A stretch of DNA of 64,000 nt from Alphaproteobacteria bacterium (GCA_017475605.1 JAFVFD010000002.1:11769-75768), one strand, 5' to 3'. Counted from the first letter of the stretch, positions 7,227 through 55,061 are shown. Notes: generated by a model from the letters alone, not told the origin. Numbers and translations: made by a program.

Positions 7227-7794
7227 ATTTCCTTAAGTCATAAACAAATAGTTTGTGTGGATATTTATATCGACCATAACGTGTGGAACCATGGCCAACA
7301 TCAATTATGTGTGTCGGCTTTAATTCATCAATTGGCACATCAAGTGTGATAATCATATCAAATTGTTTTGTGTATTCCGCCAACCGATAATTAGTGTTCG
7401 GTCCCAGGTACGCAACCCCTATATCAAATCTTGGCGATGATTTTAAATATTCAAACGCATCGCATTTTATAATTTGAATATGCGTGCGTGCGAACCAATT
7501 GGCGATGCGTGAAACAGTTATGGTAAATGGCATGTTTTCCAATGCCACGACCGTCGCATTACAATTCCGCGCGATATATCGTGCCAGTCCGCCATATCCC
7601 GCACCAATATCAACAATCGATGTCGCGTTTGGGTAATATTTATTTATGGTACGTACCACTGCGCGACGCAAACGCTTTGCACTGGCCACAAATGGTATTT
7701 GATTGTGCGCAATGCACCAAATATATTCCGCGCCATATACGATGATATACAATTCGCCGATAAAAATTAAAAACGCAATTATGTACGCAATCAT
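7225..7794 (-). CDS. Class I SAM-dependent methyltransferase with an N-terminal TM helix
   Basis: Motif I VDIGAGYGG. 189 aa. Confidence 0.6.
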   Translation of the reverse strand: MIAYIIAFLIFIGELYIIVYGAEYIWCIAHNQIPFVASAKRLRRAVVRTINKYYPNATSIVDIGAGYGGLARYIARNCNATVVALENMPFTITVSRIANWFARTHIQIIKCDAFEYLKSSPRFDIGVAYLGPNTNYRLAEYTKQFDMIITLDVPIDELKPTHIIDVGHGSTRYGRYKYPHKLFVYDLRK

Positions 7795-11525: not shown

Positions 11526-11727
11526 GTTTGTTTCCTTTTGGTTTAGATTTCGGAAACCACAACACGACACACCATCGGTGCCCCGCGTGGCAACCGAAAA
11601 GTTTGATGAGATTTTTTTGTTTGAGATTTTGTGGGATTATCAACCGGTGTCATATCACCACCCCACGCATACTATTATAGTGAAAATAATTTTGTTTTCA
11701 AGTGGGGGCGAAGTTGGAATATTTTTC

Positions 11728-25486: not shown

Positions 25487-28345
25487 TTGAAACGCATGGT
25501 TTTAGGGCTTTTTGCGTGTTTGTTTGGTGTGTTCGTCGTGAACGTGGCGATGGCTGCGTGTACAGAAAATGAAATTGATGTAACCGGTACCGGCAGTCAA
25601 TGTGAAACAGTAAAATTTACCCTGACAACAACGGAATTGGCGGCAAACGGATCATTAAATATATGGATGTCTGCCAAGGGAACATTCTATATTGATTGTG
25701 GGAAAAATGGTACGTTGTCTGGTGCCGGAACATCTGGTAAAACGCTTACAAAAACAACCAATTTGGTTTCAGAAGTGCAATGTAAATGGTCGTCCGCCGG
25801 TGTACACACGATTCGATTTGGTGGAACCGCGACGGAATATGCCAGTGTTGGTCTTGATGCATCTTCAACCAATGCGGCGATACAATTTGGTACCAGCACA
25901 AATCAGTCAAAAATAGCATCTGTGTCAGGTTCGTTGGGCGCAATGTTCCCGCAATTGGGATCGGCATCGAACCAAGTTCCAAGTTTTGCATCATTATTTG
26001 ATGGGGCCAGCAATTTAACATCTATACCATCGACATTGTTCAGTGGTTTAACCGGCAGTGCCAACGCAAGGTATATGTTTCATGAAACTTTTTCTGGTTG
26101 TACCAGTTTAACATCAATACCGGCGGGATTGTTTGCGGATATTACCACACCTGCCGAGCATATGTTTAATAAAACGTTTAATGGGGATACTAATTTATCT
26201 GGCTTTATACCATGGACTACATTTTCTGGATTGGTTGCAAATAACAGTCCAACCGTTTCAAATATGTGGGTTAATACATTCCAGGGCACCAATTTGGCTA
26301 CGGCTTGTCCAACGGGGTCAACCCAATATACAACCCAATACGAATCCAGTTGGAACAGCAAAATTTCATGTATTTGTGCCGGCGCATACTTTTTTGATGA
26401 TGCGCTGAACACATGCACCCCATGTCCAAATGGCTATGATTATGATACAACCAACGGCAAAACGGATGTAAGCCAGTGCCAAATACAGTGCGCAGCAGGA
26501 ACATATGTCGAAACCCCTGGTGTATATGGTTTTACAGTTCTGGAATATTTGGAAAGCCCCGGTGATGCGTACATTGATACGGGGTTCGTGCACAATTCAG
26601 ACAATATTCGGGGCGAAATTCGTGTTGGGGTATCTGAAAATATCGCGTCAAGCAAGAATTTTAATATAATTGGAAACCAAACAGCCAATGAGGGATATTC
26701 TGTGGGGTGGGCAGACAATCAGTTTAAAGTATGGGTTGTTACCACAGGTCAACGCTTAAGAGGTCCCGATCATCCATTGGTGGCAAATGGCGTGTATGAT
26801 ATTGCGTATGAATTTAAAAATGGTCGGCAATACCTGACAGATGGCAGTGATACAAGAGACATGGCACACGATGGTGGAATTGTGACAGACAAGCCTATAC
26901 ACTTGTTCGATAACGGTGTCCAAGAAATGTCTTATAATTTCAAGGGGCGTGTGTATTGGATACGGTTATATGAAAACAATGTGTTGGTGCATAATTTCCT
27001 GCCGGTGCGTCAAGATGGTACAGATCTGATAGGTATATTTGATACAGTAACAGGAAGCTTCTTTACCAACAGTAATGCCAATAGTCAAAGTGGATTTACA
27101 TATGGTGGCGATTTAAGCAACACATGTGTTGATTCTGGGCGTGGGTATTATGTTGGGCAATCTATAACCAATTTTGGTGATGTCGGCGAACGGATCCCGT
27201 GTCCGATTGGTAAGTATTCCAATAGTCTGCGAGGCACCAGTATCGCATCGTGCCAGAACTGTCAGGGCGCAACATACAACGATGTTACGGGTGCCGCCGA
27301 ATGTGCCGCATGTCCGGCCGGATATACCGATAATATAGACCCAGGTAAAATATCAAAAACACAATGCGAAACCACATGTCCAGGCGGAACGTATATGAGG
27401 TCTGATATGATTAATGGACATACAAAGTTAGAATATATTGTAGCGGAAGGCAAACAATGGATAAATACTAATATTAATGCATCATCATTGGTAAATCCAA
27501 TTATGAAATTGACAACGCAATATACCGCTGTTGAAAAAGGAAAACAAACCGGTGCGAAGAAAAACAATCTTGATTTCAAGGTGGGTATTTCTAATGGCAA
27601 TGTGTTCTTGTGCCAGGCCGGTGGGGCAAATACAGAAACAAAATTTGGTGCCGCTGACACCGCAAAACATACGTTTATATTGGATGCGGGTGCGGGAAAA
27701 TGTTCCCTGGACGACGAAATCAAAGACTTGGCTGTTGGCAATTTAACCGATGGACCCATTTCTATCGGGACGGTGAATAATCAATCTGGCAATGCTGGAA
27801 AACAAAAAATCTTTGCTTTTACTTTGATAAGCAACGGCGTAAAGTTACTGGACTTGATTCCAGTGCTTGATGCAAATGGCGTTGCAGGAATGTATGATGA
27901 GGCCCACGATCGATTTTACGCCAGTGCCGGATCCCAGCCGTTTGTTCAAGGGCCGCGATCAAATTCTAGTGGTTGTATTGATGTTGAACCGGGATATTGG
28001 GCGCCAGAAACTGTGTTAGGATATGGGGAAACAAGCGATCGTAATGAATGTCCGCTGGGAACAACAACGGTTGGATATGGCCATGGCGCAGACGAGGCAT
28101 CTGACTGTGGGCGTGTGTTATATATTGCCAATGGAAAGTTTTATGCGAAAACAATAAAGCCAACAACACCGGCACTAAACCTTATGACCAATGGGGGCGG
28201 TATATTTTACATCTGGGCCAGCCCAACAGACCATACATTATCCAACTTGCACCTGGGATCAATGGAAAATCAATATACGGTATATGATGACAGTTTGTTC
28301 TATGGTGAACGCGATTTTACGACGGACAATCGTATAAACAATTAA
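25487..28345 (+). CDS. Secreted cysteine-rich repeat protein (952 aa), member of the Cys-rich surface protein family
   Basis: Signal peptide LFACLFGVFVVNVAMA. Leucine-rich-repeat-like segment FSGLTGSANARYMF..FSGCTSLTSIPAGLF. Ephrin-receptor-like CxxCP.G.Y modules (CTPCPNGYDY, CQNCQGATYNDVTGAAECAACPAGY). The start may be TTG at 25487 or ATG at 25496. Confidence 0.7.
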   Translation: MKRMVLGLFACLFGVFVVNVAMAACTENEIDVTGTGSQCETVKFTLTTTELAANGSLNIWMSAKGTFYIDCGKNGTLSGAGTSGKTLTKTTNLVSEVQCKWSSAGVHTIRFGGTATEYASVGLDASSTNAAIQFGTSTNQSKIASVSGSLGAMFPQLGSASNQVPSFASLFDGASNLTSIPSTLFSGLTGSANARYMFHETFSGCTSLTSIPAGLFADITTPAEHMFNKTFNGDTNLSGFIPWTTFSGLVANNSPTVSNMWVNTFQGTNLATACPTGSTQYTTQYESSWNSKISCICAGAYFFDDALNTCTPCPNGYDYDTTNGKTDVSQCQIQCAAGTYVETPGVYGFTVLEYLESPGDAYIDTGFVHNSDNIRGEIRVGVSENIASSKNFNIIGNQTANEGYSVGWADNQFKVWVVTTGQRLRGPDHPLVANGVYDIAYEFKNGRQYLTDGSDTRDMAHDGGIVTDKPIHLFDNGVQEMSYNFKGRVYWIRLYENNVLVHNFLPVRQDGTDLIGIFDTVTGSFFTNSNANSQSGFTYGGDLSNTCVDSGRGYYVGQSITNFGDVGERIPCPIGKYSNSLRGTSIASCQNCQGATYNDVTGAAECAACPAGYTDNIDPGKISKTQCETTCPGGTYMRSDMINGHTKLEYIVAEGKQWINTNINASSLVNPIMKLTTQYTAVEKGKQTGAKKNNLDFKVGISNGNVFLCQAGGANTETKFGAADTAKHTFILDAGAGKCSLDDEIKDLAVGNLTDGPISIGTVNNQSGNAGKQKIFAFTLISNGVKLLDLIPVLDANGVAGMYDEAHDRFYASAGSQPFVQGPRSNSSGCIDVEPGYWAPETVLGYGETSDRNECPLGTTTVGYGHGADEASDCGRVLYIANGKFYAKTIKPTTPALNLMTNGGGIFYIWASPTDHTLSNLHLGSMENQYTVYDDSLFYGERDFTTDNRINN

Positions 28346-39115: not shown

Positions 39116-39206
39116 GGAGACGTCGCATAGTTGGTCTAGTGCGCCACATTGGAAATGTGGTATACTCGCAAGGGTATCAAGGGTTCGAATCCCTTCGTCT
39201 CCGCCA
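39116..39206 (+). tRNA. tRNA-Ser (anticodon GGA)
   Basis: Acceptor GGAGACG/CGTCTCC. Anticodon stem CCACA/TGTGG with loop TTGGAAA. Long variable arm. T-arm AAGGG-TTCGAAT-CCCTT. CCA is encoded. Confidence 0.88.
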
Positions 39207-39239
39207 GAAAATTACCCCGCATTTGCGGGGTTAATTTTT

Positions 39240-39385
39240 GGCGGATATGTGAGGCAGATTTGAACCATTAGCAACGAATGTTGCTGGGTTCGAAAACAAG
39301 TAGATTTTGCAAGCGCAGCGTGGCGAAATCGTTACGGTTTGCCCGCAGGCACATTGTGCCGAGGGAATCCCTTCGTCTCCGCCAG
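39240..39385. repeat. Element A, copy 2
   Basis: It starts with TGGCGGA, an inverted tRNA-Ser 3' terminus. Then ..CAGATTTGAACC, the hairpin AGCAAC-gaat-GTTGCT, GGGTTCGAAAACAAGTAGATTTTG, a core, and the hairpin GGCACA-tt-GTGCC. It ends with GAGGGAATCCCTTCGTCTCCGCCAG, the tRNA-Ser 3' end. Both hairpins carry compensatory changes relative to copy 1. Confidence 0.75.
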
Positions 39386-39435
39386 AAAATTAAAATCTTA
39401 AAACGCCCCGTTCGGGGTGTTTTTGATTTTAACTG

Positions 39436-39583
39436 GCGTGGACGAAGGGATGGGTCAGAGCGAAGCGCATGACCAATACGCAGATGAACAATTACAAAAC
39501 CTGCAAAAACGGATATTTTTAATAGAGTTTTTGCGTTTAGGTTTTGTTTTTGTTTATCAAGGGGGGGGTATCGTCTCCGCCAG
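39436..39583. repeat. Element B, copy 2
   Basis: GGCGTGGACGAAGGGAT is the reverse complement of the tRNA-Ser 3' end, with 15 of 17 bases matching. Core GATGGGTCAGAGCGAAGCGCATGACCAATACGCAGATGAACAATTA. An AT-rich spacer follows, then TTGTTTATCAAGGGGGGG plus CGTCTCCGCCAG. Terminator copies lie at 39398..39426 and 39598..39625. Confidence 0.75.
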
Positions 39584-39688
39584 AAAATTAAAATCTTAAA
39601 ACACCCGTTCGGGGTGTTTTTTATTTAGGAGGGGGAGGAATTGATTGATTTTTTTATGGTTTTGTGATATAATATGTGCAACTAAACG

Positions 39689-39713
39689 GACGGCATTTGC
39701 CGTCTTTTTTTAT
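39689..39713 (+). terminator. Terminator-like hairpin between the repeat array and the toxin gene
   Basis: GACGGCAtttGCCGTC followed by a T-run. Confidence 0.55.
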
Positions 39714-39758
39714 TTCCACCGCTACGTGCGGGTTTTTTATTTAACAAAAGGAGTTATA

Positions 39759-40910
39759 ATGCAAACACCAAAATTTTTACGCAATTTATTACAATCTAAT
39801 AACTATTGGAATAAAAATAGTACTGAATTCGCAAAAGCAAATGAATATCTGGAAAAGTTATATCCAGTGCAACTGTCCGCTGATTTATCAGGAAGATTTG
39901 TTGAACCGCCATACGATATGACCCTGGAACAATTTGAAAGCGCACAACGGCAATTCGACAAAGATTTGGAAGATGCGATTCATGAAGCAGAAGATTCAGT
40001 AGATGATGCAAATGGAACAGCAGAGCCAATTGACTATGACCAATATGTAGATATTGAAGAAACGATAGATGTTCGTGTTTTGATGCCAGGTGGAAATATA
40101 GAATATATGCAACTTGTCGTATATATGTTGAATTTGCCTGATGATGACACTGATGTGGAACTGGAACCAGATAAAACACAAAGGATTTGGATATGGCACA
40201 GCGAAGAAGACGAAAATGTTTGCGATGATTGTGTATCACACGATGACGAAGTATTCGAAGACAAAGACGATATTCCAGAAATTCCCGTGCATCCTAACTG
40301 TCGTTGTTGGGTTGAAGAAGTAAAGTTAGATGACAACGGTAAACCTATTTCAAGTAAAGCATACAAAGGGCAAAAGCCAGAAATACCGAAAAATGACAAA
40401 GAACCTCAGTCAGAAAAAACGCCAACTTTTGATAAACCTGTTGATATAAAAGAAGGTCAATATGCCACATTTGACGGGAAAAATCTGACTATATTTCAAG
40501 ACGGCAAAGTTGTTGCTTCGTGGAATGCGGTATCAGGTCGTCCAGAGTATCAAAGTCCAGAATATCAAAATCTAAAATCCACAGGTCCAATTCCAGAAGG
40601 TGCATATGTAGCAAGACAAGAAAAATTACAACATATGTCACCAGCAGATTGGGCAATTGGATGGTCCAGAGTTCTGGGAAATAAATTTGGTGGGAAATGG
40701 CCGGGTTCATCTGTTTCTTGGGGAAATTCTCGCGTATGGCTGGAACCTTCAAAAGAAACAAACACTTTTGGACGTGACAAATTCAGTATTCACGGAGGCT
40801 TGTTTCCTGGTTCTGCAGGTTGTATAGATTTGACGGACCAAATAAACTCTTTTACATCTTGGTTGGAAAGTACTGGAAAAGATTTACTGATATATGTAAA
40901 ATATAAATAA
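39759..40910 (+). CDS. Fusion protein with polymorphic-toxin architecture: a MuF-like C-terminal motif (CxxC...HPNCRC) plus a C-terminal L,D-transpeptidase/YkuD-like domain
   Basis: Start taken at MQTPKF with an AAGGAG Shine-Dalgarno (the ORF track starts earlier, at 39645). VCDDCVSHDDEVF...IPVHPNCRCWV resembles the phage Mu F / SPP1 gp7 C-terminal signature. The C-terminus FSIHGGLFPGSAGCIDL resembles the L,D-transpeptidase His...Cys active-site motif. No signal peptide. Confidence 0.5.
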   Translation: MQTPKFLRNLLQSNNYWNKNSTEFAKANEYLEKLYPVQLSADLSGRFVEPPYDMTLEQFESAQRQFDKDLEDAIHEAEDSVDDANGTAEPIDYDQYVDIEETIDVRVLMPGGNIEYMQLVVYMLNLPDDDTDVELEPDKTQRIWIWHSEEDENVCDDCVSHDDEVFEDKDDIPEIPVHPNCRCWVEEVKLDDNGKPISSKAYKGQKPEIPKNDKEPQSEKTPTFDKPVDIKEGQYATFDGKNLTIFQDGKVVASWNAVSGRPEYQSPEYQNLKSTGPIPEGAYVARQEKLQHMSPADWAIGWSRVLGNKFGGKWPGSSVSWGNSRVWLEPSKETNTFGRDKFSIHGGLFPGSAGCIDLTDQINSFTSWLESTGKDLLIYVKYK

Positions 40911-40925
40911 GTCAAAGGACATTTT

Positions 40926-41273
40926 ATGAAATATTGGAAACGCGCAGCAATAATTTTTGTTGGAATTGATTTTTTTCTACTTTTTGCGTTGATTGATGAA
41001 TATTATGAATTTTTTATCAAGGATTGTCGTGATGCGTTTCCATTCCATTATTGTCCATGGGGTGGCGAAAGTATGGGTTGGGGATGGAGAAATGCCGATG
41101 TATATTTGAATGGCATAGCATCATCTGGTGCTGTTTTATTATTGTTTATTCCATTGGCAATATATCATTTGTACAATCAAAATTATAAATATGCATTTTG
41201 GACTGCTTTAGCCCCAATCATAATATCTTGGAGTAGTGAATTTTTAGAACGTATTTTATATTATTGTGCTTAA
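40926..41273 (+). CDS. Small polytopic membrane protein; candidate immunity protein for the upstream toxin
   Basis: 115 aa with 3 predicted TM helices. Starts 15 nt after the toxin stop. Confidence 0.4.
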   Translation: MKYWKRAAIIFVGIDFFLLFALIDEYYEFFIKDCRDAFPFHYCPWGGESMGWGWRNADVYLNGIASSGAVLLLFIPLAIYHLYNQNYKYAFWTALAPIIISWSSEFLERILYYCA

Positions 41274-41280
41274 CTTGTTG

Positions 41281-41335
41281 ACATTTGAAAATAATGGACA
41301 TGATTTAATTGTTAATGTAAAATACAAATGATGAG
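41281..41335. repeat. Direct repeat, left copy, flanking the 41328..41630 cassette
   Basis: TTGAAAATAATGGACATGATTTAATTGTTAATGTAAAATAC compared with the copy at 41632..41690, TTGAAAACAATGAACATGATCTAATTATCAATATAAAGAAATAC. Confidence 0.6.
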
Positions 41336-41630
41336 TTTTATAGGCAGTTTTTTATCTATGACCCTTGCATTATTCTTTCTGAATGATTTGTCGGGGCTTT
41401 TAAGTAACGGTAAATGGGACGGCTTACTGCATTTTATATGCGAACATGATTGCCTTATGCTTGTTGATAAAATAGCCCTAGTATTATTTAGTACGATGTT
41501 TGTATTTTTTTCTATACAGGCAATAAAACTATACAAATGGAAATTTTTATTTGTCCCTTTATTATCTTGCCTTGCATGGTTATTGTTGATGATGTTACAT
41601 TTATTGACAGTATATTTGTTTTTTGTATGA
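41328..41630 (+). CDS. Small hydrophobic membrane protein; second immunity-like cassette
   Basis: 100 aa with 3 TM helices. Flanked by ~55-nt direct repeats. Confidence 0.35.
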   Translation: MMSFIGSFLSMTLALFFLNDLSGLLSNGKWDGLLHFICEHDCLMLVDKIALVLFSTMFVFFSIQAIKLYKWKFLFVPLLSCLAWLLLMMLHLLTVYLFFV

Positions 41631-41631
41631 T

Positions 41632-41690
41632 TTGAAAACAATGAACATGATCTAATTATCAATATAAAGAAATACTTTGTCCTGCATCAT
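41632..41690. repeat. Direct repeat, right copy
   Basis: See the left copy at 41281..41335. Confidence 0.6.
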
Positions 41691-41719
41691 TTGGTGCAGG
41701 TTTTTTTATAAAAAAAGAG

Positions 41720-42238
41720 ATGAAAGATATGAAAATGAGTGACAATGGCATAAATATGTTAAAAAAATTTGAAGGTTCTGTAACAAAAGGCGATAAACAC
41801 ATTATATATGATGATAAAACCGGGAAACCCGTGGATGTGAACAAACCTTTACCAAGTGGTGCAACTATCGGTTATGGTCATTTAATCAAACCGAACGAAG
41901 ATTTTAGAAACGGAATTTCAGAATCTAAAGCCACCGAATTATTACGCGCCGACATTGCAACTGCAGAACGTGCCGTACGAGATAACATAACTGTACCATT
42001 ATCACAGAATCAATTTGATGCTCTGACTTCTTTGGCTTATAATATCGGCTCAAAAAATTTCGCAAATTCAACCGTTGTTAAATATGTAAACAATCCGAAT
42101 TTTCATAGTTCTGTGTATCCAAATCTGGAATCTGCATGGAAGACATGGAATCGTTCCCAGGGCAACGTATTAAAGGGTCTTGTAAACCGCAGACAAAACG
42201 AATGGGTTATGTATAATCGTGGTATATATTTAATTTAG
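41720..42238 (+). CDS. Phage-type lysozyme (GH24, lambda/T4-like endolysin fold)
   Basis: LKKFEGSVTKGD..YDD..GKPV....TIGYGH matches the GH24 catalytic region. QFDALTSLAYNIG. Confidence 0.85.
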   Translation: MKDMKMSDNGINMLKKFEGSVTKGDKHIIYDDKTGKPVDVNKPLPSGATIGYGHLIKPNEDFRNGISESKATELLRADIATAERAVRDNITVPLSQNQFDALTSLAYNIGSKNFANSTVVKYVNNPNFHSSVYPNLESAWKTWNRSQGNVLKGLVNRRQNEWVMYNRGIYLI

Positions 42239-42307
42239 ATAATAACAGTAAGGTTCTGCTGTTTTTTAGCGTTTTTAATTGGCAATATTGGGGTAATATG
42301 ACATAAT

Positions 42308-43528
42308 TTGCCCATGGGTCAAATAATAATACATGTTGATATGGATGCCTTTTATGCCGCGGTTGAAATGCGCGACAATCCGTCGTTGCGTGGGAAACCC
42401 CTGATAATAGGTTCTTTGCCACACGAACGCGGGGTTGTGTCAACCTGTAACTATGCCGCACGCAAATATGGTGTGCATTCTGGTATGAATATCAAGGATG
42501 CGTACAGACTGTGCCCAAATGGGGTATATATGCACCCAAATTTTGATAAATATAAATCTGTGTCGCACCAGTTACATGAAATATGGGATGGGTATGCAAC
42601 GGCATCAGAATCGGTTGCCTTTGACGAGGCTTATTTAGACGTAACAAAACAGGCCGGCGATTTTGCCGGTGCGCGTAAAATCGCACATGAAATCAAGCAG
42701 CGTGTCCGCGATGAATTGCAATTAAGTTGCTCGGTTGGTGTTGCGTATTCTAAAACCGCGGCGAAAATCGCCAGCGAAGAGAAAAAACCAGATGGCTATT
42801 TTGAAATAGAAACCCCCGACGATTTTGTAAACCTTATAATAGATCGTGATGTCGGGGTGCTTTATACTGTTGGTGCGCGAACCGCACAAAAATTGTCGTC
42901 TGTCGGTATAAAAACGGTGCGTGATATACGCGATAACAGCGCGCGCGTAATTGAATTGTTGGGCAAACATGGTCGCTGGTTAACAAATATTGCGTTTGGG
43001 GTGGATAATCGGAGTGTAACACCATATGACCCGCATAATGCGAAAACAATCGGACGCGAAATTACATTTCAACAAGATGTAAATAACACTGATTTATTGC
43101 GTGATATCCTGTTGTTGTTGTCGCTTTGTGTGGAACATCGGGTGAATCGTGTTGGATTGGTGGGCGGTGGGGTTACTTTAAAAATTACATATTCCAATAT
43201 GCGCAAAATCACGCGCAGCGAGTTGTGTTCATGTGCCAATGCCGTTGATATATATAATACAACGGTGCGTTTGCTGGGGAATATTGAACGGCGGCCTGTG
43301 CGATTGATTGGTGTTGGGGTATATAACTTGACGCATACCGGTGTTGCGCAATTGTCATTAGGTGAAATGTTAAAACCAAACGCTTCTGAAACTGAATTGC
43401 ACGATTTGTTAACTATGCTGGGGAATAAATATAATTTGGACTTTGCTGGTAATTTGAATAAACTTTTTGAAATGGAAACACTTTACAAAACAATTGAATA
43501 TATGCGAAAGCATGCAGTGCATGTTTAA
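42308..43528 (+). CDS. dinB: DNA polymerase IV (Y-family)
   Basis: IIHVDMDAFYAAVEMRDNPSLRGKPLIIG and SCSVGVAYSK. Confidence 0.9.
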   Translation: MPMGQIIIHVDMDAFYAAVEMRDNPSLRGKPLIIGSLPHERGVVSTCNYAARKYGVHSGMNIKDAYRLCPNGVYMHPNFDKYKSVSHQLHEIWDGYATASESVAFDEAYLDVTKQAGDFAGARKIAHEIKQRVRDELQLSCSVGVAYSKTAAKIASEEKKPDGYFEIETPDDFVNLIIDRDVGVLYTVGARTAQKLSSVGIKTVRDIRDNSARVIELLGKHGRWLTNIAFGVDNRSVTPYDPHNAKTIGREITFQQDVNNTDLLRDILLLLSLCVEHRVNRVGLVGGGVTLKITYSNMRKITRSELCSCANAVDIYNTTVRLLGNIERRPVRLIGVGVYNLTHTGVAQLSLGEMLKPNASETELHDLLTMLGNKYNLDFAGNLNKLFEMETLYKTIEYMRKHAVHV

Positions 43529-46431: not shown

Positions 46432-49400
46432 CTACCACGATATATATCCTGGATTACACGTCCGTTCGCACTTTTTGGTGGCATTGTTCCACCGCAGCGA
46501 ACCTGTTTCGTCTGAATATGGGCGATCACAAATTGGGACACATTCGTTGTTGTCCAAATTGTACTTTTCGCCTTGATACAGACATGATGCTATTTCGCAA
46601 CCGGTGCTGTAACTGGCCGCGGCAACTTCGCCCAGAACACTGAACTTGTTGCGACATGCGCTGCACTGTTCGGATGCGTTATTCTTTTCGTATGGGTCGT
46701 TCGTATAGCCCGGTACGCACGATGTCGCAATACATTCGTTCCATGAACCCGTTGCGGTGTTCCATGTCTTTGTACCAACACCGTTCGGGACGTTACACAC
46801 CTGTTCATTTTCAACACACGCGTTTGATGCCAGGTGGAACCCATCTTCACACGATTTTATCGTACAGATGCCGAATGCGCCATGTGCTGCATCCCACTTC
46901 TGTGTGGCAACTGTTGCGTTTGGTGCCACGTCTGTACAATCTTTGACATCTTCCTCACAAACACTGTTGTATGGATGGTAACCAATCACGCAGCTTTCAA
47001 TTATACAGTTTCCATCAGGTTTATAGGACAATGCGTTTTCACGATTGCATGGCTTACATGACCCATTGACCATTTCGTAGTTACTGATACACGCTGTTTC
47101 TATACAATGCCCGTCAACAACTTCTGCCGGGTTACCAGTCGCAGATGTACCAGTGTACTGACAATTGTTTGGCCAATAGGCGGTGGTTTCAACTGGGCTA
47201 AGGGTACAATTATCCTCAACATATCCAGTACACTTGCGGTAACAATCGCTTGCCTTGGTGGCCCCAGGGGCTGAATACATCCAACTGCCATCACCCAGGT
47301 CCGCGCAAGATTTCGCGCCGTTGCCACCTTCGCCGCCCGGTGTTCCATCACAGAAACTGCCCGCTGGACAAGTTACACATTGGCCATTGGACAGTGTATA
47401 ACCTGATGCACAAGATGTAATCGCACATGTGTCTGTGGCAGTATAATAATCATGGCCCGACATCGCATTTGCGTTTTCGCCCATTGTACAGTCGCGATAG
47501 CAATATGCCTTATCTATTGTTCCTGCTTCTGACTTTGGATACAACCCACCAGTCAGATATTCGCAGGTTTCTACTTCCTGTCCAGGTTCACATACACTGT
47601 TTTCTGGACATACGAAGCAGGCACGTTCGCTTTCGCTGGTTGCTGTACGTGTTGTTGTCCCCGCCGGACACGCATACCGCGCCAAATCGCGATCTGGGCT
47701 GTAATACGCATAGTCCGCCACAGAACATTCTATATCGGTCGCATTTGCCAACCAATAACCCGCATCGCAGTACAGCATAGTTGGGGTTCCGCAACCGGCC
47801 AGGTACGCATCATCCGCAACACTCCATTTACATGTGCGTTCGCCACCACCATGTTCCGCAACATACGGTTGTCCATTCTTCCAGCATTCAGATATCGTAC
47901 TGGTGTTGTTGTATGATGTCTTACCTTCGTTCGGACACGCATGACGTTCCAGTTCGTCTTCAATGCTGTAATAGTTGAAGTCTACGACAGTACATGCGAT
48001 ATCTGTTTGTGCCGCCAAATAATACCCACCACGACACTTTGTAATAACCTTGTCAAAGCAATCGCGTCCATAAACCGCACTATTTCCTGTGCCATTTGAA
48101 TACCAGCAACTTTGTGTCCCAGTACCCGACCCATCGGTCGCCGCATAGGCCAAATTCGCCTTGAAGCATTCCTGGACCGTTTCCGCGGTTGTGTTATCAG
48201 ACTTCGTTGTACCGCCATTCGGGCACGCATCACGTGTTAATATATTGTTCGCACTGTAATACCCGACACCGGCCGCTGAACAATCGGTGCCTGTTGTGGT
48301 TGCCAACCAATGACCCGCATCACAGGATGTTATTACAAAGTCTTTACATCTGTCGGAATAGGCCAGGGCTGTTTCGTTGTAATAACATGTTTGTGTACCG
48401 CGTCCATGTGTTGCAACATATGTTGGCAACAATTCTTTATAACATGCCGCACTGCTTTCCGAATTGGCAGGCGATTTACCATCGTCCGGACAGGGTTCAA
48501 TACCTGCCTGGCCAGAATTTGTAACGACGGTTACACCAGGGCAATAGTTGTTTGCCGTACATGGTAAACAGTCTGTTGTCGGATTTTCGCCGGCACCGCG
48601 ATAATATTTACCCACTGGACATGTAATAGGTGCATCGGTCCATTGTGCAGAAACCGTAGCATTGGATGTTGTAAATGTCAGTGCGGCCGTTGTTGTTACA
48701 AATTTGCCGTCCGCATCAACAACAGATACATTATTCCCTGTGTATCCAGCGAATGTCAACACACCCTTGACCGGTTTTGTGGTCAGTGTGGTAATTGCCG
48801 TTGTGGCGGCTGCATTTGAATACCAGCCGGTCGCATACTTCAAATACACCTTGGCCGGTGAACCAGCGGTTGTCGCACCATTGTGATTCAATGTGATTTC
48901 ATACACATTCGGTGTCCACTGGGCAAACAATTCAATATCAGATGCATCAGACGATATATTTGTCGTAACCGTAGTACCCGCGTTATAGCATGTGCCACCA
49001 CCATTCGCCGCGGTGCACCATTTGTTCGCGGTGCTGTACCCGGTGCGTGTATCCACAATCGCCGGTAATGCGCATGCGCCACTGTCGAATGTGCACTTTA
49101 CACTTGGTGCGGTTGAACCCGTACCACCATTTTTGTTAAGGGTAATGGTGTATTCGTGTGCATCGCATGTTGGTGCGGCGGTGTTGTTGTTTTTGACATC
49201 ATAACCGGTCTTGCACACTACATTGTATGAACAAGCATTATATGTTGTCGCGCTGTTACCATACACGATATTTTCCGCGGCGGATACAGTCTTGGAATTT
49301 GCGAAATCCGCAGGTGTTTTATCGCATTCGGTATAGCATGCGGTGTAACTTGCCGCGAATTCTGTTGAACCCGCCCAGCCCGCCGGACATTCCGTTTGGG

Positions 49401-52400
49401 TTGTTGCACCATCACCACTGTAATAACCGCTTGTTGTGCCGGAACACGCGAACGAACCGGCGACCCTGTAAAAGTATCCCGCGTTACAGGTCAAAGCATC
49501 GGCATCCATACAGTTATTATAATCACCACTAACTTCTGTGCCGTTGTAATAGCATGTGGCGAAACCTGTACCATTTGCCCAATTGTGATTTGGATAGCCG
49601 GTTGTTGCGGTATATGGATTATATGTTACATAACAAGTCTCAATACCACGATATTTTTGACCTTCAACCAGGGCGGCCTTGCCCGGGGTGCCATCTTTGT
49701 CGGTCGGACAGTCGTGGAATCCATCTGTATCGCACCACATATCTTCTGGGCAAACATTGGAACTATAGATACATTTGTTATAAGCATTTGTCGTTGTGTT
49801 ATAGGAAACATGTTGGCTTACCACATTAACGGTAGTTCCGTTCAGATTCTTGGTTGCTTTACATGTCAAATAACAATCTGTAATCGCTTTACCATTTGTC
49901 GCACTGCCAGTATTTGGTGTGTTGCTGACCACATCGCCAGATGTATCTGTACCCGCGGGGCACACATTTAATTTAGTAGATGTGGTATCTGTTATATTTG
50001 TTTCGTTCCAATTAGTCGGGGCAGGACTCCAATTGCCATCGCCAACCGCAACACAGTCCAGATTTTCATTTGTACTTGTTGCGCCGTCTAATTCATCATA
50101 GTATCCAGCATCACACTTGCGCATTGTATAACTGTTGCCGCAATTGATTGAATAGGTGTTGTTAACAGTGCTCCAATGGCAACGTTTTGTGCGACCACCA
50201 TGAGTTGTCTTTTCCCAAATGCCTTCGCGGACACAACCTTCTATCGAGCCACTTTCATCACCATCTGTGGATATCGTATTACGGGAATCATCAACATCGT
50301 ACACAGCTTCTGGACAGCGTGTGCGTGCGGTAAAGTTGGTCGCACTGTAATATTGATAACCAACCAAAGAACAGTCAGTTGTTGTTTTGGTTGTATCCAA
50401 CCACCAACCACTGTTACATGTCAATATTTCAATTGTATTACAGTCGGAATTATACTTGCCCGCACTGTAATGGCAAACCTGCTTACCCTTACCATGATCT
50501 GCGCTGTATTGTACTGTGGCAAAGCAGTCTGATTCTTCGTCTCTGCCATTGTCAGAACCAACACTTGGGGCAACATTGGAAAGCGCGGTGCCGTTCCAGG
50601 TTTGTGCCGGGGTATATGTTGTCCCCGCAACCGCAGTTGGACAGGCGTTTATAAAGTGATTCTGGCCATCGCGGTCTTCGTCGCTGTATGCGACACCACC
50701 CGGACACCATGACCCATTCGGACAAGACTTACATGCGTTGTCTGCATCATCAAAATATTGTCCCGCATTACATGTCTTGGTCTTTTTAGCAACCCAACTT
50801 GCTGTCAGGGTTGTTGTAGTTGTGGTATCGGTATAATTTACCAGTTTATTGGTCGCCACGATTTGACCGGTGCCATTTATCACAGCAACCTGGGTTCCGC
50901 CAATCGTTGCATCATAGCCAGAACAATTCTGTGAGCCCTTGGTTGGCAGCACGATGCTTGTTATCGCGTTTGTCGCGGCGGCATTTGAATACCAGCCTTT
51001 GCCATATTTCATATAGATTGGACCATCTGTACCACCGGTACCACCATCTTTTGCTAATATGAATGTATAGATGTTTGGTTCACATGTTGTACCAGATGTA
51101 TGATAGCCGGCAACGCATACTGGGTTTTGCCAGGTGCATGTTCCAAATGTACCACTTGTTGTAACGGTTTTGTTCGTTGGGTTGTATGCCGTTATGGTCC
51201 CGGCAAAACTGACCGTTTCCGCAACCGGCGCACGTGTACCAATTACTTCGCCATTGTCGGTAACATTCACCGATGAACAAGAGTTATAACATGCTGTCGG
51301 CAAAGCACTCTTTTCGCCTTCTGTTGTGGAATTGATGTGTCCAGGCAAAGCACTACATGGATAGCGCGCCATACTTACAGCGTCTTCTGTGTTATTTGTC
51401 GGGGCGGGGCTCCAATTGCCTTTACCCGCTGGTTCACAGGTAGAAGAATCTTCTGCAACGCGATAATAACCACCACTGCAGTATTTAATTTTTATAGATT
51501 CACAGTTCTTATACCCGGCACTTGAATCATCAACATAATTGCAAACCTGGTCGCCACCACCGGTTCCATTGGCCAAGGCCACACCTGTTCTTGTCGTTTT
51601 ACATGCGGTAACAGCAGAACTGCCCGCCGGTGATGTTACGGCCCCGCCAGATGTGTCTGTTGGGCAAGTCTTATGGCACCCGTCATCTGCCTTGTCTTTG
51701 TCTTCGTAGTCAACCTGGCCACCTGGGCAATAGAAGCCAGCAGGGCATTCTGCGTCAGAACCAGTTAACCCAGCGGTACATGTGAACAAGTTTGTTGACC
51801 AACGGGCATACAACGTGTCAAATACACCCGCGGTTGATGCGGTGCCGCCTTCGGCTGTGTCGGCAATACCAATGGTTGTTGCTACCGACAGATTACCAGA
51901 GGCATCGATTACTTGAACCCCACCTGTTTTTTCAGATACGGTATAGTAGCCCATAAATGTGTGATTTTCCCATGTCGGCGGTGTAATCTTGGTTACCGTT
52001 GTGCCAAAGTTAGTCAAAGACCACCCAATTGAATATTTTTCATATATGGTCTTGTTTGTGCCCGGCGCACCGTTAAGGTCAAGTGTTATTGTGTACACCT
52101 TGGGATCACATGTACCCGCTGTTGCGTTTTTATCATAATTGCCCATGCAGGTATATGTCATGGCACAACTTGACGGCATCGCGGTACATCCGCATAACAC
52201 ACCGTCTATATTATTACAAGTGCCATCGCAATAATAGTCTGCACCACTTGTTTTTGCGTTTTCATTTTGGGTGCATGTCTTATTGTTGGCTGGGCATACT
52301 TGCGGTGTACAATACAAAGAGCATGTTGTATAGCATGTTCCACACGCACCACCTGTGTTGCCAAGTATCGACTGATTGTAGCCGGTTGTACTACAAGATT

Positions 52401-54987
52401 CGCATGTTCTTGTTTCTGTATTTTCGAAATATCTGTTCTTACACCAAACTTGTTTAAGTTGGCATGCAGTATTGTTTACATTAGTACATGCAGAACTTCC
52501 ATAATCTGAAATACCAGCAACCTTGTTTTCTGTATCATAAGAACAATTTGTTGAGTTTGTTGGGCATGTGCTTGGTTCAACACAAGTTGCGGTGTTACAT
52601 GTTTTATAGCAGCCCGCAGATGTTGTCGATGCCGCATCAGACTTGGTATATTCCGATCCCAATGTTGTACAGGCAACAAAGCATCCCGCGCTACCTTCAA
52701 TAGCAGTTCCGGTGCCCGGACAGTATTTACCGTCGGTTGGGCAATCTACGTGTTGTTCGCCATCGTAGTATTTACCAGCCTGACATTGAACGGTATTTTG
52801 AGACCAATGTGCATATAGTGTTGTATTGGTGGTCTTATCCCAAAGACGCAAAGAAACACCACTTGCGGAATAATATTGTGTTCCGCCTGTTTGTGCATCA
52901 AAATACCCGGCAAAAGACCATGTGGCGCGTGTCGGCAATTCAGAAGCAGACAAGGCCGGCAGATGCGCATCGTATGTCGCCGTAACTGATGATTTACAGC
53001 CCGTTCCACACGTGCCTTCATTTGCGTTCAGTGTAACTTGATATTCTAATGGTTCGCAATATGTGCCATCATCACTTACTTTATATCCTTCTGTACAAGA
53101 GAATGGTTCGTCATCGCCCGGACAGGTGGCATGTGGAACGCATGCGTTACAACCGTTGCCGGACAGATAATAATTTTCAGCACACGCAGTTGCCGCGCAA
53201 TTGTTTTCCCCATTTTTATGATAAATGCCAGATACCGTCTTTGAACCCGCAACATCGGATACCTTACATTCACGATAACAATAATTCGAATCGGTTGTTC
53301 CCTGGACTGAATAAGGGAATGTCGAATTAGATGCCGAACATAATGTACAATTTGTCGCGGTCGTAGATGCAAAGTAATTAGCGGCAGCCACAACCGGCGC
53401 AACAACCGTTTTGTTACATGTGTTTGTGTTTGTTTCACAGCCGCTCTTTATGGTGCCATCGGCGGTACCTGTCGCGTTCGAATATGCGACATAATCGCAT
53501 GTCGCCGGTGTACAATCTTGGAATGTGGCAGAAACGCAACCGTTTGGTAATGTTTCAATATGTGCGCCACTTGATGTACGCTGTTTGGTCTCGCTGAAAC
53601 ATTGGGTGATGGCGGTCGATGTCGTGCTTTCTGTGTGTGGGTATGCCGTAGGGCATGTTTCGCATGCCGCATTCGCCTTGGCGGATGATGCCTTGTACTT
53701 GTTGTATCCGCATGCAGTCCACACCGCATAAACCGTTTTGTCAGTTGTTATTGTTATTGTATACGAACCAGTCGTCGCAGATGCAGATGTTGCCCAGCCA
53801 CCAAATACATAGCCCGCACGATAGAACGAGTTTGTATCACCACTGGCCAGTGTACATTCAACCCCGGATGCACATTGTTTGTTTGCTGGTTTTGTCCCAT
53901 CACCACCATTCAGGTTATATGTTACAGTGAACGTATCTTGGGAATAATTGCCGGTAAATGTAACTGTGCCGGAATACACCCCAAGGTTTTCATAGGTACA
54001 CGCAATACCGGTTTGTCCACTGCCGAATGATTTAGTAACCAAAGTACTTGGAACCCATGATCCAAATGACCAATTGTCAACAGTTGGTGCGGTTGCCGCA
54101 TTAAATGTTTCGCCATATGTACATGACGCAGGGGTTGTTGGTGCAGTACCTTTTGTTGGTGCCCAAACAAAGTTAATCGTGTTTGGTGTCGCGGTACATG
54201 TATATGATGTCGCACCTGCGGTTGAATTGGTTTGTGTGGTATTTGTGGTATAGCCTTGGTCGGCTTCTACACTATACACACACTTGTTGTCGTTTGAAGT
54301 TGTGGATGCGGTACAGGTCTTTACCCCCGTACCCTTGGTGGCAAGACACGCACTACATGCATACGGTGCAGACCCTGTGCGAACATATTTTGAACTACAT
54401 GTTTTAATCGTACAAAGGTTAGTTATAATATTGTTGTTCCAGGCCGTTGTTTCCCAGTTTGCGACATTAGACGCATTGGCGCAGTTTGCATCGCAACTGG
54501 TCTTGCCGGTACCACTGGTGGTTTTGCCTGCGGCACACGCGGTACAGGATGTGTTGCCGGTACCGGTATTGTATGAACCTGTGGCACACGCAATACACGC
54601 ACTTTCGGCACTGCTGCCGGTGCTGGCATTGTATGTTCCGGCGGAACATGCTGTGCGACCACCAACATCATCATAATGTACAGTAACTCCGCCCGGACAA
54701 TATCCGCCGGCGGTACAGGTCGTTTCGCCCGCACCAGCGGTTGCTACATACTTACCGGCCGTTGTTGTTAAATAACAGTTGTTTATGCCACCTGTGGTAT
54801 TATCAGATGCACTGTTTGGATAGTTTGTTGGGCATTTTGCGCACTGACTGGACCCATCAAGGTAATAACCGGCATTACAGCTGATGTATGTTTTTTCGCA
54901 TGAATAGCCCTCGGCAAAAGAATTCGCCGAAAATGCGAACAGAAACAAACCAACGAAAAACCCGAGAAAACAGCGCTTTCTTCCCAT
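46432..54987 (-). CDS. Giant secreted cysteine-rich repeat protein 1 (~2850 aa). It has Listeria-Bacteroides (Flg_new) repeats, ephrin-receptor-like CxxCPxGxYC modules, a reiterated ~70-aa Cys module, and a ~500-aa C-terminal region shared with gene 2
   Basis: Signal peptide MGRKRCFLGFFVGLFLFAFSANSFA, with the start at 54987 preceded by AGAGAGGAAG. YTITLNKNGGTG...TGYSTANKWCT and YEITLNHNGATTAG...FAGY are Flg_new-like. Many modules of the type CLPCTANNYCPG and CKSCPNGSWCPGG. Repeated module CDAGYWL..C...YYS..R..CP.G. Confidence 0.85.
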   Translation of the reverse strand: MGRKRCFLGFFVGLFLFAFSANSFAEGYSCEKTYISCNAGYYLDGSSQCAKCPTNYPNSASDNTTGGINNCYLTTTAGKYVATAGAGETTCTAGGYCPGGVTVHYDDVGGRTACSAGTYNASTGSSAESACIACATGSYNTGTGNTSCTACAAGKTTSGTGKTSCDANCANASNVANWETTAWNNNIITNLCTIKTCSSKYVRTGSAPYACSACLATKGTGVKTCTASTTSNDNKCVYSVEADQGYTTNTTQTNSTAGATSYTCTATPNTINFVWAPTKGTAPTTPASCTYGETFNAATAPTVDNWSFGSWVPSTLVTKSFGSGQTGIACTYENLGVYSGTVTFTGNYSQDTFTVTYNLNGGDGTKPANKQCASGVECTLASGDTNSFYRAGYVFGGWATSASATTGSYTITITTDKTVYAVWTACGYNKYKASSAKANAACETCPTAYPHTESTTSTAITQCFSETKQRTSSGAHIETLPNGCVSATFQDCTPATCDYVAYSNATGTADGTIKSGCETNTNTCNKTVVAPVVAAANYFASTTATNCTLCSASNSTFPYSVQGTTDSNYCYRECKVSDVAGSKTVSGIYHKNGENNCAATACAENYYLSGNGCNACVPHATCPGDDEPFSCTEGYKVSDDGTYCEPLEYQVTLNANEGTCGTGCKSSVTATYDAHLPALSASELPTRATWSFAGYFDAQTGGTQYYSASGVSLRLWDKTTNTTLYAHWSQNTVQCQAGKYYDGEQHVDCPTDGKYCPGTGTAIEGSAGCFVACTTLGSEYTKSDAASTTSAGCYKTCNTATCVEPSTCPTNSTNCSYDTENKVAGISDYGSSACTNVNNTACQLKQVWCKNRYFENTETRTCESCSTTGYNQSILGNTGGACGTCYTTCSLYCTPQVCPANNKTCTQNENAKTSGADYYCDGTCNNIDGVLCGCTAMPSSCAMTYTCMGNYDKNATAGTCDPKVYTITLDLNGAPGTNKTIYEKYSIGWSLTNFGTTVTKITPPTWENHTFMGYYTVSEKTGGVQVIDASGNLSVATTIGIADTAEGGTASTAGVFDTLYARWSTNLFTCTAGLTGSDAECPAGFYCPGGQVDYEDKDKADDGCHKTCPTDTSGGAVTSPAGSSAVTACKTTRTGVALANGTGGGDQVCNYVDDSSAGYKNCESIKIKYCSGGYYRVAEDSSTCEPAGKGNWSPAPTNNTEDAVSMARYPCSALPGHINSTTEGEKSALPTACYNSCSSVNVTDNGEVIGTRAPVAETVSFAGTITAYNPTNKTVTTSGTFGTCTWQNPVCVAGYHTSGTTCEPNIYTFILAKDGGTGGTDGPIYMKYGKGWYSNAAATNAITSIVLPTKGSQNCSGYDATIGGTQVAVINGTGQIVATNKLVNYTDTTTTTTLTASWVAKKTKTCNAGQYFDDADNACKSCPNGSWCPGGVAYSDEDRDGQNHFINACPTAVAGTTYTPAQTWNGTALSNVAPSVGSDNGRDEESDCFATVQYSADHGKGKQVCHYSAGKYNSDCNTIEILTCNSGWWLDTTKTTTDCSLVGYQYYSATNFTARTRCPEAVYDVDDSRNTISTDGDESGSIEGCVREGIWEKTTHGGRTKRCHWSTVNNTYSINCGNSYTMRKCDAGYYDELDGATSTNENLDCVAVGDGNWSPAPTNWNETNITDTTSTKLNVCPAGTDTSGDVVSNTPNTGSATNGKAITDCYLTCKATKNLNGTTVNVVSQHVSYNTTTNAYNKCIYSSNVCPEDMWCDTDGFHDCPTDKDGTPGKAALVEGQKYRGIETCYVTYNPYTATTGYPNHNWANGTGFATCYYNGTEVSGDYNNCMDADALTCNAGYFYRVAGSFACSGTTSGYYSGDGATTQTECPAGWAGSTEFAASYTACYTECDKTPADFANSKTVSAAENIVYGNSATTYNACSYNVVCKTGYDVKNNNTAAPTCDAHEYTITLNKNGGTGSTAPSVKCTFDSGACALPAIVDTRTGYSTANKWCTAANGGGTCYNAGTTVTTNISSDASDIELFAQWTPNVYEITLNHNGATTAGSPAKVYLKYATGWYSNAAATTAITTLTTKPVKGVLTFAGYTGNNVSVVDADGKFVTTTAALTFTTSNATVSAQWTDAPITCPVGKYYRGAGENPTTDCLPCTANNYCPGVTVVTNSGQAGIEPCPDDGKSPANSESSAACYKELLPTYVATHGRGTQTCYYNETALAYSDRCKDFVITSCDAGHWLATTTGTDCSAAGVGYYSANNILTRDACPNGGTTKSDNTTAETVQECFKANLAYAATDGSGTGTQSCWYSNGTGNSAVYGRDCFDKVITKCRGGYYLAAQTDIACTVVDFNYYSIEDELERHACPNEGKTSYNNTSTISECWKNGQPYVAEHGGGERTCKWSVADDAYLAGCGTPTMLYCDAGYWLANATDIECSVADYAYYSPDRDLARYACPAGTTTRTATSESERACFVCPENSVCEPGQEVETCEYLTGGLYPKSEAGTIDKAYCYRDCTMGENANAMSGHDYYTATDTCAITSCASGYTLSNGQCVTCPAGSFCDGTPGGEGGNGAKSCADLGDGSWMYSAPGATKASDCYRKCTGYVEDNCTLSPVETTAYWPNNCQYTGTSATGNPAEVVDGHCIETACISNYEMVNGSCKPCNRENALSYKPDGNCIIESCVIGYHPYNSVCEEDVKDCTDVAPNATVATQKWDAAHGAFGICTIKSCEDGFHLASNACVENEQVCNVPNGVGTKTWNTATGSWNECIATSCVPGYTNDPYEKNNASEQCSACRNKFSVLGEVAAASYSTGCEIASCLYQGEKYNLDNNECVPICDRPYSDETGSLRWNNATKKCERTCNPGYISW
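48660..49290. repeat. Near-identical intragenic repeat, copy 1 of 3 (Flg_new pair unit). The other copies are at ~57320..57960 and ~59700..60250
   Basis: The ORF track shows identical spurious peptides (MPPPFAAVHHLFAVLYPVRVSTIAGNAH..., MIQCDFIHIRCPLGKQF...) at all three places. A DNA comparison by eye shows only scattered mismatches over ~500 bp. Boundaries are approximate. Confidence 0.8.
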
Positions 54988-55061
54988 AACTTCCTCTCTT
55001 TTATATTTCATGGTAGAAAAAATATATGGGGTAGTGCAAGAATAAAATTAACAAAATATAA

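Follow-up and report, generated by a model that had tools for sequence, protein, structure and literature searches.

We analysed a 64,000-nucleotide (nt) stretch of DNA from an Alphaproteobacteria bacterium (GCA_017475605.1 JAFVFD010000002.1:11769-75768), referred to here as the window, and in particular a small islet (39645-42238) that lies downstream of a tRNA-Ser gene. The islet encodes a 383-residue protein ending in an enzyme domain of the Tlde1 type, two small membrane proteins and a GH24 lysozyme. The evidence makes it likely that the islet represents a polymorphic toxin-immunity family, large and so far undescribed, with loci across 'Candidatus Enterousia'-like gut and rumen Alphaproteobacteria. 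All of the features that a sequence-only reading of this DNA had reported were found where it had placed them. Those from the toxin gene to the lysozyme gene are as follows (aa, amino acid residues; TM, transmembrane segment; dN/dS, ratio of nonsynonymous to synonymous substitution rates):

39759..40910, + strand: predicted toxin gene, 383 aa, comprising N-domain, MuF-C-like motif, linker and Tlde1 domain
Toxin aa 1-135: N-domain, no known relative
Toxin aa 139-192 (40173-40334): MuF-C-like motif of Zn type
Toxin aa 193-222: variable linker
Toxin aa ~223-383 (40425-40907): Tlde1 domain
40926..41273, + strand: predicted cognate immunity gene for a membrane protein of 115 aa, in which a loop of ~39 aa with two Cys separates TM1 from TM2; dN/dS 0.13
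41284..41331, + strand: remnant of the 3' end of a toxin of another allele (FENNGHDLIVNVKYK, then a stop); repeat D1, 76% identical to 40863-40908
41328..41630, + strand: predicted orphan immunity gene, 100 aa, 3 TM; dN/dS 0.12
41631..41676, + strand: second, more eroded toxin 3'-end remnant (FENNEHDLIINIKKY...); repeat D1, 61% identical
41681..41707, + strand: terminator-like hairpin and T-run before the GH24 gene
41720..42238, + strand: free-standing GH24 lysozyme gene, 172 aa; PF00959 E 1e-31; dN/dS 0.12-0.25

The open reading frame (ORF) called mechanically for the toxin spans 39645..40910, and its start codon is the ATG at 39759, with AAGGAG 6 nt before it. An NCBI entry is identical to the 383-aa protein, and the sole name given there is 'DUF2778 domain-containing protein'. 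No signal peptide was predicted for the protein, and aa 1-135 matched nothing known, including at the level of the fold. The CxxC...HPNCRC pattern noticed earlier in this gene is present (C155-D-D-C158 ... H178-P-N-C181-R-C183), but the spacer from ...DDEVF to IPVHPNCRC is 8 residues long (E167-E174) and not 18. The dN/dS of the toxin and of other islet parts is 0.11-0.25.

The C-terminal ~150 residues of the toxin are a Tlde1 domain, a conclusion on which Pfam, AlphaFold/Foldseek and a profile alignment agree. In Pfam, Tlde1_dom (PF10908) matched aa 257-366 with 31.6 bits (cutoff 30.1), and homologs of the toxin carry precomputed PF10908 matches. The AlphaFold2 model of the domain has a predicted local distance difference test score mostly of 83-94, and when the AlphaFold model was searched against the PDB with Foldseek, the top three matches were Tlde1a (7uo8/7uma; E 4.5e-7, probability 1.00, target TM-score 0.60); YkuD and further L,D-transpeptidases came next. 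A profile of the toxin family also finds Tlde1a, aligning H345 with H121, C355 with C131, R325 with R99 and W321 with W93. In Tlde1a these four are catalytic or substrate-cleft residues (PMC9638812), and the aligned positions are invariant in 44 homologs of the toxin, across which both H345 and C355 of the segment FSIHGGLFPGSAGCIDL (residues 342-358) are unchanged. The sequence-only reading, which had seen an L,D-transpeptidase/YkuD-like end here, was right as to the fold, with Salmonella Tlde1a as best match and PF10908 above its cutoff; of the two Pfam families by which it had named the parts of the protein, YkuD (21.8 bits, cutoff 23.4) and PF04233 (see below) both stayed under their cutoffs. 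It had also treated the short distance between His and Cys as a possible novelty. That distance is 10 residues both in Tlde1a (H121-C131) and in the toxin (H345-C355), and is therefore not novel.

Tlde1a is the effector of Tlde1a/Tldi1a, an effector-immunity pair of Salmonella Typhimurium's type VI secretion system (T6SS) (PF10908; PDB 7uma, 7uo3, 7uo8), and the toxin shares its C-terminal fold and family. As in Tlde1a, the Trp and Arg of the substrate cleft are kept, the gene directly 3' of the toxin is the predicted immunity gene, and the expected target is the peptidoglycan stem peptide in the periplasm. The identity to Tlde1a is only ~25%, however, and whereas Tlde1a stands alone, the domain here is joined to a 222-aa N-terminal region, with no T6SS genes near the toxin in the annotated parts of the window. 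Another difference is the hypervariability among toxin alleles of the capping-loop region and C-terminal helix, variability of the Tlde1 domain peaking at aa 291-312 (the equivalent of the Tlde1a capping subdomain) and at aa 361-383. Most likely the toxin is directed at the cell wall of rival bacteria.

The proteins encoded by the two small ORFs have 2-3 hydrophobic segments each by hydropathy and belong to no Pfam family. They are not similar to each other, so we rejected the idea that they are paralogs. We read both as immunity genes, the 100-aa one as an orphan against a foreign allele, because the allele of the toxin tail predicts the family of the next ORF and because toxin remnants precede the extra small ORFs. 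From 80 loci we took 96 toxin tails, each with the ORF behind it. For 89 of them, the closest tail at any other locus was followed by the same ORF family, whereas 1000 shuffles averaged 9.7 such cases and never exceeded 21 (adjusted mutual information 0.80); the shared ancestry of related genomes partly inflates the observed figure. The small ORFs that follow toxins fall into >20 families, which track the C-terminal allele. About 20 remnant pairs show the pairing too, and it is kept behind a different N-terminal class, the same C-terminal/immunity unit recurring in this setting in L040-L042 and L077 (related loci are designated by L and a number). The proposal that the two small membrane ORFs are immunity genes was thus upheld.

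At this locus, the 115-aa ORF belongs to a family that follows every '...WLESTGKDL..VKY' toxin tail, intact or remnant. The 100-aa ORF is cognate to the '...FENNGHDLI(V/I)N(V/I)KY' allele, which is not present at this locus; its family stands after intact toxins of that allele in L011, L014, L024, L036, L051 and L055. The last ~46 nt of the toxin recur behind each small ORF (at 41284 and 41631). The remnant at 41284..41331 has a tail identical to that of the intact L011 toxin and, just as in L011, still overlaps the 100-aa ORF by the native ATGA, while the remnant at 41631..41676 is comparable to the L014 tail ...FENNGHDLIINIKYQ. Orphan arrays of toxin fragments and immunity genes were also found in L019, L022, L038, L040, L077 and L085.

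This organisation resembles that of contact-dependent growth inhibition (CDI; CdiA-CT/CdiI) and Rhs loci, in which a constant N-terminus carries a variable C-terminal toxin with its cognate immunity gene directly 3', orphan immunity genes are arrayed downstream, each after a fragment of a former toxin, and modules move among loci. In contrast to both, the N-terminal region here is small, unrelated and without a known secretion domain, the remnants keep only the last ~46-200 nt of the toxin, and we saw no conserved motif that would demarcate the toxin part as VENN does, the junction lying in the variable linker.

The same architecture of ~375 aa was found in 437 protein clusters in a protein search, and a scan of species-representative genomes returned 242 stretches, a recurrence well above what chance would produce. 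We kept 79 loci, almost all of them from 'Candidatus Enterousia' or other gut/rumen Alphaproteobacteria. When the N-terminal 240 residues were used as query, relatives of the N-domain and motif carried GH24, GH108, M23, Tlde1, M15, pesticin-like or lipase cargo, one of them matching PF16754 (Pesticin); nearly all of the cargo types identified are, by their domain assignments, cell-wall enzymes. Identity of the N- and C-terminal parts is decoupled: in 12 pairs the N-domains are at least 85% identical and the C-terminal domains at most 65%. With the N-domain joined to Tlde1, GH24 or GH108, the polymorphic-toxin architecture proposed earlier was confirmed, and the exchangeable cargo, covarying immunity gene and orphan cassettes mark the islet as a predicted polymorphic toxin-immunity system. 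There are several toxin loci per genome, a sign that attack on cell walls or discrimination of kin is strongly selected.

Genomes of Ca. Enterousia (order Rs-D84) are mostly <1 Mb and encode neither a tricarboxylic acid cycle nor respiratory chains, and an obligate symbiotic or parasitic lifestyle has been proposed (PMC12306168). We infer that the host of the islet belongs to a Ca. Enterousia-like lineage, whose members here are uncultured inhabitants of gut and rumen.

Further architectures stand behind the same leader in the same clade (L047 5437-6513, L077 5548-6555, L019 8268-8873 and L067 757-1614). They include a short N-terminus with a CGGDCGGC...HRNCNC motif followed by PG_binding_1 and Tlde1, a third N-terminal class starting MSIKEYTS..., a 201-aa protein with a C-terminal MuF-C motif that matches PF04233 above the cutoff (36 bits), and a short N-domain with the motif followed by GH108 and PG_binding_3. 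The cultured Magnetospirillum aberrantis and M. molischianum (L079 4243-6438 and L080) encode 731-755-aa proteins with PG_binding_1 and Tlde1, 51-52% identical to that of the window and each followed by a 104-127-aa membrane ORF. These relatives could be tractable for experiments.

The GH24 lysozyme reported at 41720..42238 is present (PF00959, as above). Its closest solved relatives are phage lysozymes (6et6 and 2anv), and it has no signal peptide or TM segment. Its probable origin can be read from L004, where the same rpoZ–tRNA-Ser ... ybaK site holds a direct fusion of the N-domain to GH24. By blastn, nt 1-641 of this fusion correspond to 39759-40405 of the window and nt 642-1070 to 41722-42150, both with 81% identity. 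Relative to the fusion, the window holds a clean 1316-bp extra segment, in which the Tlde1 domain lies together with the two immunity genes and the remnants. Fusions of the N-domain to GH24 occur in L004, L043, L045, L053, L061 and L081 with one common junction, and fusions to GH108 as well as free-standing GH108 genes were also found. Free-standing GH24 genes in L014, L030, L035, L036, L067 and L068 are preceded by the double-hairpin portion of the leader described below, L030 and L035 also having a recognisable promoter. In the window, the best promoter-like site of the region (41604-41631, 11/12 matches) lies upstream of the hairpin at 41681..41707. Purifying selection, together with a promoter and hairpin that belong to it, shows that the GH24 gene is no decaying orphan. 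We read it as an alternative cargo of the N-domain that was probably displaced by the Tlde1/immunity insertion and is still in use. The label endolysin, under which it had been reported, is not supported: there is no holin, and the same domain is fused to the N-domain at the same chromosomal site in sister loci.

Behind the N-domain–GH24 fusions lie conserved ORFs that carry a signal peptide or lipoprotein box: 11150-11566 (- strand) in L004 with homologs in L043 and L061, and 5590-5961 (+ strand) in L053 with 7020-7481 (+ strand) in L081. These make up two unrelated families without a Pfam match and are candidate periplasmic lysozyme immunity proteins. No homolog of them was found in the window. 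In the metagenome variant L003, whose contig elsewhere matches the window almost completely, a frameshift splits the GH24 gene (2085-2557; gene-caller product 105 aa), through either an assembly error or natural loss of the lysozyme.

Upstream of the toxin, the following features lie between the tRNA gene and the start codon (att, attachment site):

39116..39206, + strand: tRNA-Ser(gga) (ARAGORN; Rfam tRNA 59 bits)
39187..39214, + strand: copy 1 of a 28-nt direct repeat (repeat family D2), the true tRNA 3' end
39365..39392, + strand: repeat copy 2, 100% identical, then terminator hairpin 39400-39423
39563..39590, + strand: repeat copy 3, last 19 nt identical, then terminator hairpin 39598-39620; last att-like site before the toxin promoter
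39645..39673, + strand: toxin operon promoter (TTGATT, 17 nt, TG-extended TATAAT)
39688..39738, + strand: 5' leader with hairpins 39688-39705 and 39719-39731, a U-run after each

A 19-mer of the tRNA 3' end had three matches against 0 expected. An inverted copy of the tRNA 3' end is located at 39433-39451, between the tRNA and the toxin promoter, and two ORFs called in the repeat stretch (39278..39472 and 39417..39599) are probably spurious. The GC content is 32-38% over 39500-42500 and 45-49% in the flanks. The association with tRNA genes extends to the family: 38 of 67 evaluable loci have a tRNA gene on the same strand within 1.3 kb upstream (median ~275 nt), where we would expect this, very roughly, for about 4% of genes picked at random from such a genome. 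Six tRNA species adjoin the family (Ser-gga, Ser-tga, Ser-cga, His, Glu and Lys), and in 21 of the 38 tRNA-linked loci, involving five different tRNAs, the tRNA 3' end is duplicated once or twice before the toxin. Only L022 has a further copy after the array (at 8854). In the window there is no copy 3' of GH24, even when a 13-mer with one mismatch was allowed, and no integrase lies within +/-10 kb of the islet. From their sequence, the repeated tRNA 3' ends appear to be relics of repeated site-specific integration, and the family would consist of integrase-less islets at tRNA hot spots, with no sign of a prophage. The earlier placement of the islet at a tRNA site is supported, with the tRNA ending at 39206, the toxin promoter starting at 39645 and six tRNAs in use across the family.

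Most of 35 related loci keep the promoter, and two hairpins with perfect stems are present in 24 of the 35. The leader is conserved at loci with different tRNAs and shows compensatory stem changes. Its pattern occurs 67 times in ~0.9 Mb, almost only before genes of the toxin family; the genes at these sites include three N-terminal classes, free-standing lysozymes and one ORF family with a weak, sub-threshold DuOB match (e.g. L056 7691-8341). The same layout was seen upstream of toxin genes in L004 and L007-L068. Rfam has no family for the leader or the att region besides the tRNA. RNAalifold on a MAFFT alignment of the leaders recovered only 3 pairs because hairpin 2 was misaligned, and hairpins were instead detected in each sequence. 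Because the conserved promoter feeds a leader with two terminators, we propose that toxin expression is probably controlled by antitermination.

These observations suggest the following mechanism. A constant N-terminal trafficking region, made up of the novel 135-aa domain and the 54-aa MuF-C-like Cys/His motif, would carry an exchangeable cargo, here the Tlde1-type L,D-carboxypeptidase/transpeptidase-like domain with a predicted His345/Cys355 active site. Within the periplasm of relatives that compete with the producer, the cargo would attack the stem peptides of peptidoglycan, and the 115-aa inner-membrane protein would neutralise it at the periplasmic face. The 100-aa orphan protein may protect against a different allele carried by neighbours, and the GH24 module, displaced downstream of the 1316-bp Tlde1/immunity insert, is still under selection. 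Expression would run from the conserved promoter through the double-terminator leader. The analysis establishes the domain identities, the fold, the covariation of allele and immunity gene, the orphan remnants, the exchange of modules, the link to tRNA genes and the conservation of the leader; from these patterns we infer toxicity, the periplasmic target, the mode of immunity and the regulation.

Several points weigh against this reading. The second histidine of the catalytic pocket of Tlde1a, H129 (S-H-G-C), is Ala353 (S-A-G-C) in the toxin, and its relatives have A, N, W, E or K at this position; because of this replacement the chemistry may differ from that of Tlde1a. The immunity proteins are multi-pass membrane proteins of many families, whereas Tldi1 is periplasmic. 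Shared ancestry, as said, contributes to the covariation figure. The free-standing GH24 gene is under purifying selection with its own promoter and hairpin, and its role may be that of a release enzyme or of a second effector. Finally, the toxin is leaderless, and the parts of the window that were checked hold no secretion, phage or gene transfer agent (GTA) genes that would account for export and import.

How such a protein might travel is suggested by pesticin and colicin M. In a delivery model that fits within the toxin-immunity reading, the toxin would be a bacteriocin of this type, released from the producer and imported into the target periplasm after its N-domain binds an outer-membrane receptor. 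Like these bacteriocins, the toxin would combine a non-enzymatic N-terminal region with a C-terminal enzyme acting in the periplasm, that of pesticin being a T4-lysozyme-like muramidase, and would be matched by immunity in the periplasm. Consistent with this, nearly all cargo types identified are cell-wall enzymes that act in the periplasm, the Pesticin model is matched by one relative, and the predicted immunity faces the periplasm in both cases, as membrane proteins for Tlde1 and as signal-peptide or lipoprotein ORFs for GH24. Colicin operons have the order toxin, immunity, release, and the islet mirrors it with toxin, immunity and a possible release enzyme; no secretion apparatus is linked to the locus. 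However, no TonB-box-like or receptor-binding similarity was detected in the N-domain, which also lacks a fold match, and nothing in it resembles a translocation domain. The release mechanism is putative, as are TonB or Tol systems in these reduced genomes, and the islets are chromosomal and tRNA-linked rather than plasmid-borne, with import only predicted. We regard this route as possible and hold it tentatively.

Equally tentative is a broader proposal about the N-terminal region. The MuF-C motif and N-domain may be a portable delivery tag, which would export Tlde1, GH24, GH108 and M23 cargo by neither a known secretion system nor a resident prophage, be present in several copies in the small genomes of bacteria presumed to live off other cells, and be switched on by a dedicated antitermination leader. 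If true, interbacterial weapons would gain a new trafficking class, and these symbionts may even use it to breach the cell walls of their partners.

A phage origin had been suggested by the sequence-only reading, which described the islet as a decayed prophage or a domesticated toxin-delivery module. As a prophage product the toxin would be a capsid-internal MuF protein, packaged through binding to the portal into phage or GTA heads and injected with the DNA, with GH24 as endolysin. The motif is indeed homologous to the C-terminal end of PF04233: Pfam, PHROG minor-head-protein matches and hhalign all recover it, and 66 of 97 distant relatives of the toxin match PF04233. The similarity is real, yet to judge from these alignments it is confined to a 54-residue C-terminal motif (aa 139-192), so that the claim of a MuF-like motif stands and that of a full MuF domain does not. 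Phage_Mu_F (PF04233) scored 24.1 bits (cutoff 29.6, E 6.6e-5) and covered only profile positions 61-111 of 112, TIGR01641 reached 19 against a cutoff of 39.65, and BFVD matches were 51-64 columns long. Alignment with hhalign to a MuF-like profile gave 54 columns only (probability 99.5%); because this profile was built from motif-selected matches, only the missing extension is informative, and on this ground we rejected the N-domain as part of a whole MuF domain.

The low-GC islet, the tRNA site and the att-like repeats would also suit a prophage, as would a promoter followed immediately by terminators, which is like the control of phage late operons. However, the earlier statement that no other phage structural genes are present was borne out, none being found within +/-10 kb of the islet or in the ~7-28 kb stretch checked, and portal, terminase, secretion system, T6SS and GTA genes were likewise absent from the checked parts of the window. 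The neighbours of the islet are the housekeeping genes rpoZ, dinB, ybaK, murJ and tgt. A scan of 2.9 million viral contigs gave a single match, to the motif only, and the N-domain was absent both from these contigs and from 50,697 phage records searched with tblastn. Moreover, every cargo type is read as periplasm-acting, whereas injection together with DNA should bring a capsid protein into the cytoplasm.

By the definition in the main text of Jamet et al. (2017; PMC5576092), MuF toxins are encoded only by phages or prophages, and their genes adjoin a portal gene. The cargo described there is mainly nuclease, with metallopeptidase, ADP-ribosyltransferase and RelA-like domains besides, and the words peptidoglycan, lysozyme, DUF2778, YkuD and transpeptidase do not occur in that main text. 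As in the MuF toxins of that account, the cargo here comes directly after the conserved CxxC...HPNCRC end, the C-terminus is exchangeable, and ORFs of <150 aa (here 115 and 100 aa) follow. In contrast to them, the toxin holds only the last ~54 residues of the MuF domain, its gene lies outside a prophage and away from portal and terminase, among rpoZ, tRNA-Ser, dinB and ybaK, and its cargo is a cell-wall enzyme. A literature search retrieved no paper combining 'Tlde1' with 'MuF'. With neither a portal/terminase neighbourhood nor any other prophage context, and with the N-domain missing from viral and phage collections, a decayed prophage is not indicated and we consider it improbable; the islet fits a family of toxin islets that lack an integrase and have a conserved promoter and leader of their own.

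A lysis or release cassette is quite improbable as well. Here the small ORFs would be holin and antiholin and GH24 the endolysin, and the toxin would be freed by lysis of some producers, as happens with colicins, pyocins or type 10 secretion. Small multi-TM ORFs do lie directly 5' of the GH24 gene, toxin and GH24 both lack export signals, and the purifying selection on GH24, together with its toxin-like promoter and hairpin leader, suggests co-induction. However, the holin reading is ruled out by the covariation of >20 small-ORF families with the toxin allele (89/96) and by the toxin 3' remnants before each small ORF, for which a holin would offer no reason. In addition, ~60 of 75 related loci have the toxin and small ORFs but no lysozyme, and the GH24 domain is also found fused to the toxin N-domain. 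A release function of GH24 taken alone may be compatible with the evidence.

Although YkuD/Tlde1-fold enzymes include normal peptidoglycan enzymes, some relatives have PG_binding_1 (among them the 731-755-aa Magnetospirillum proteins with their similar downstream membrane ORF) and hosts with small genomes keep few dispensable genes (PMC12306168), it is very unlikely that the toxin is instead a self-acting, housekeeping L,D-carboxypeptidase for cell-wall remodelling with a positioning or regulating membrane partner, given the allele swapping, the orphan partner arrays with remnants, the several loci per genome, the low GC, the six tRNAs and the lack of a signal peptide for reaching its own periplasm.

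Polymorphic toxin-immunity systems are a known kind of system, and the family proposed here would add to them an N-terminal class with cell-wall-only cargo. What is new is that this class borrows only the MuF-C motif and combines cell-wall cargo with membrane immunity proteins, orphan arrays, tRNA-linked islets and a conserved antitermination-like leader. Immunity of this form would be unusual, with many families of small multi-pass membrane proteins set against a soluble Tlde1 enzyme. A MuF-C motif outside phages bears on how MuF toxins are delivered, and both the allele-immunity pairs and the conserved leader are directly testable in E. coli.

Elsewhere in the window, an ORF at 25487..28345 (+ strand; 952 aa), with no Pfam family on record, lies amid housekeeping genes (L088 45-2903). 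Two adjacent giant ORFs fill 46-64 kb, at 46432..55011 and 55104..63800 on the - strand, and encode 2859 and 2898 aa. The copy of the first in L001 has Flg_new (Listeria-Bacteroides repeat) domains, and a 3291-aa counterpart occupies the same place in L004. Both are presumably surface proteins, and their size is notable in a lineage whose genomes are reported to be <1 Mb.

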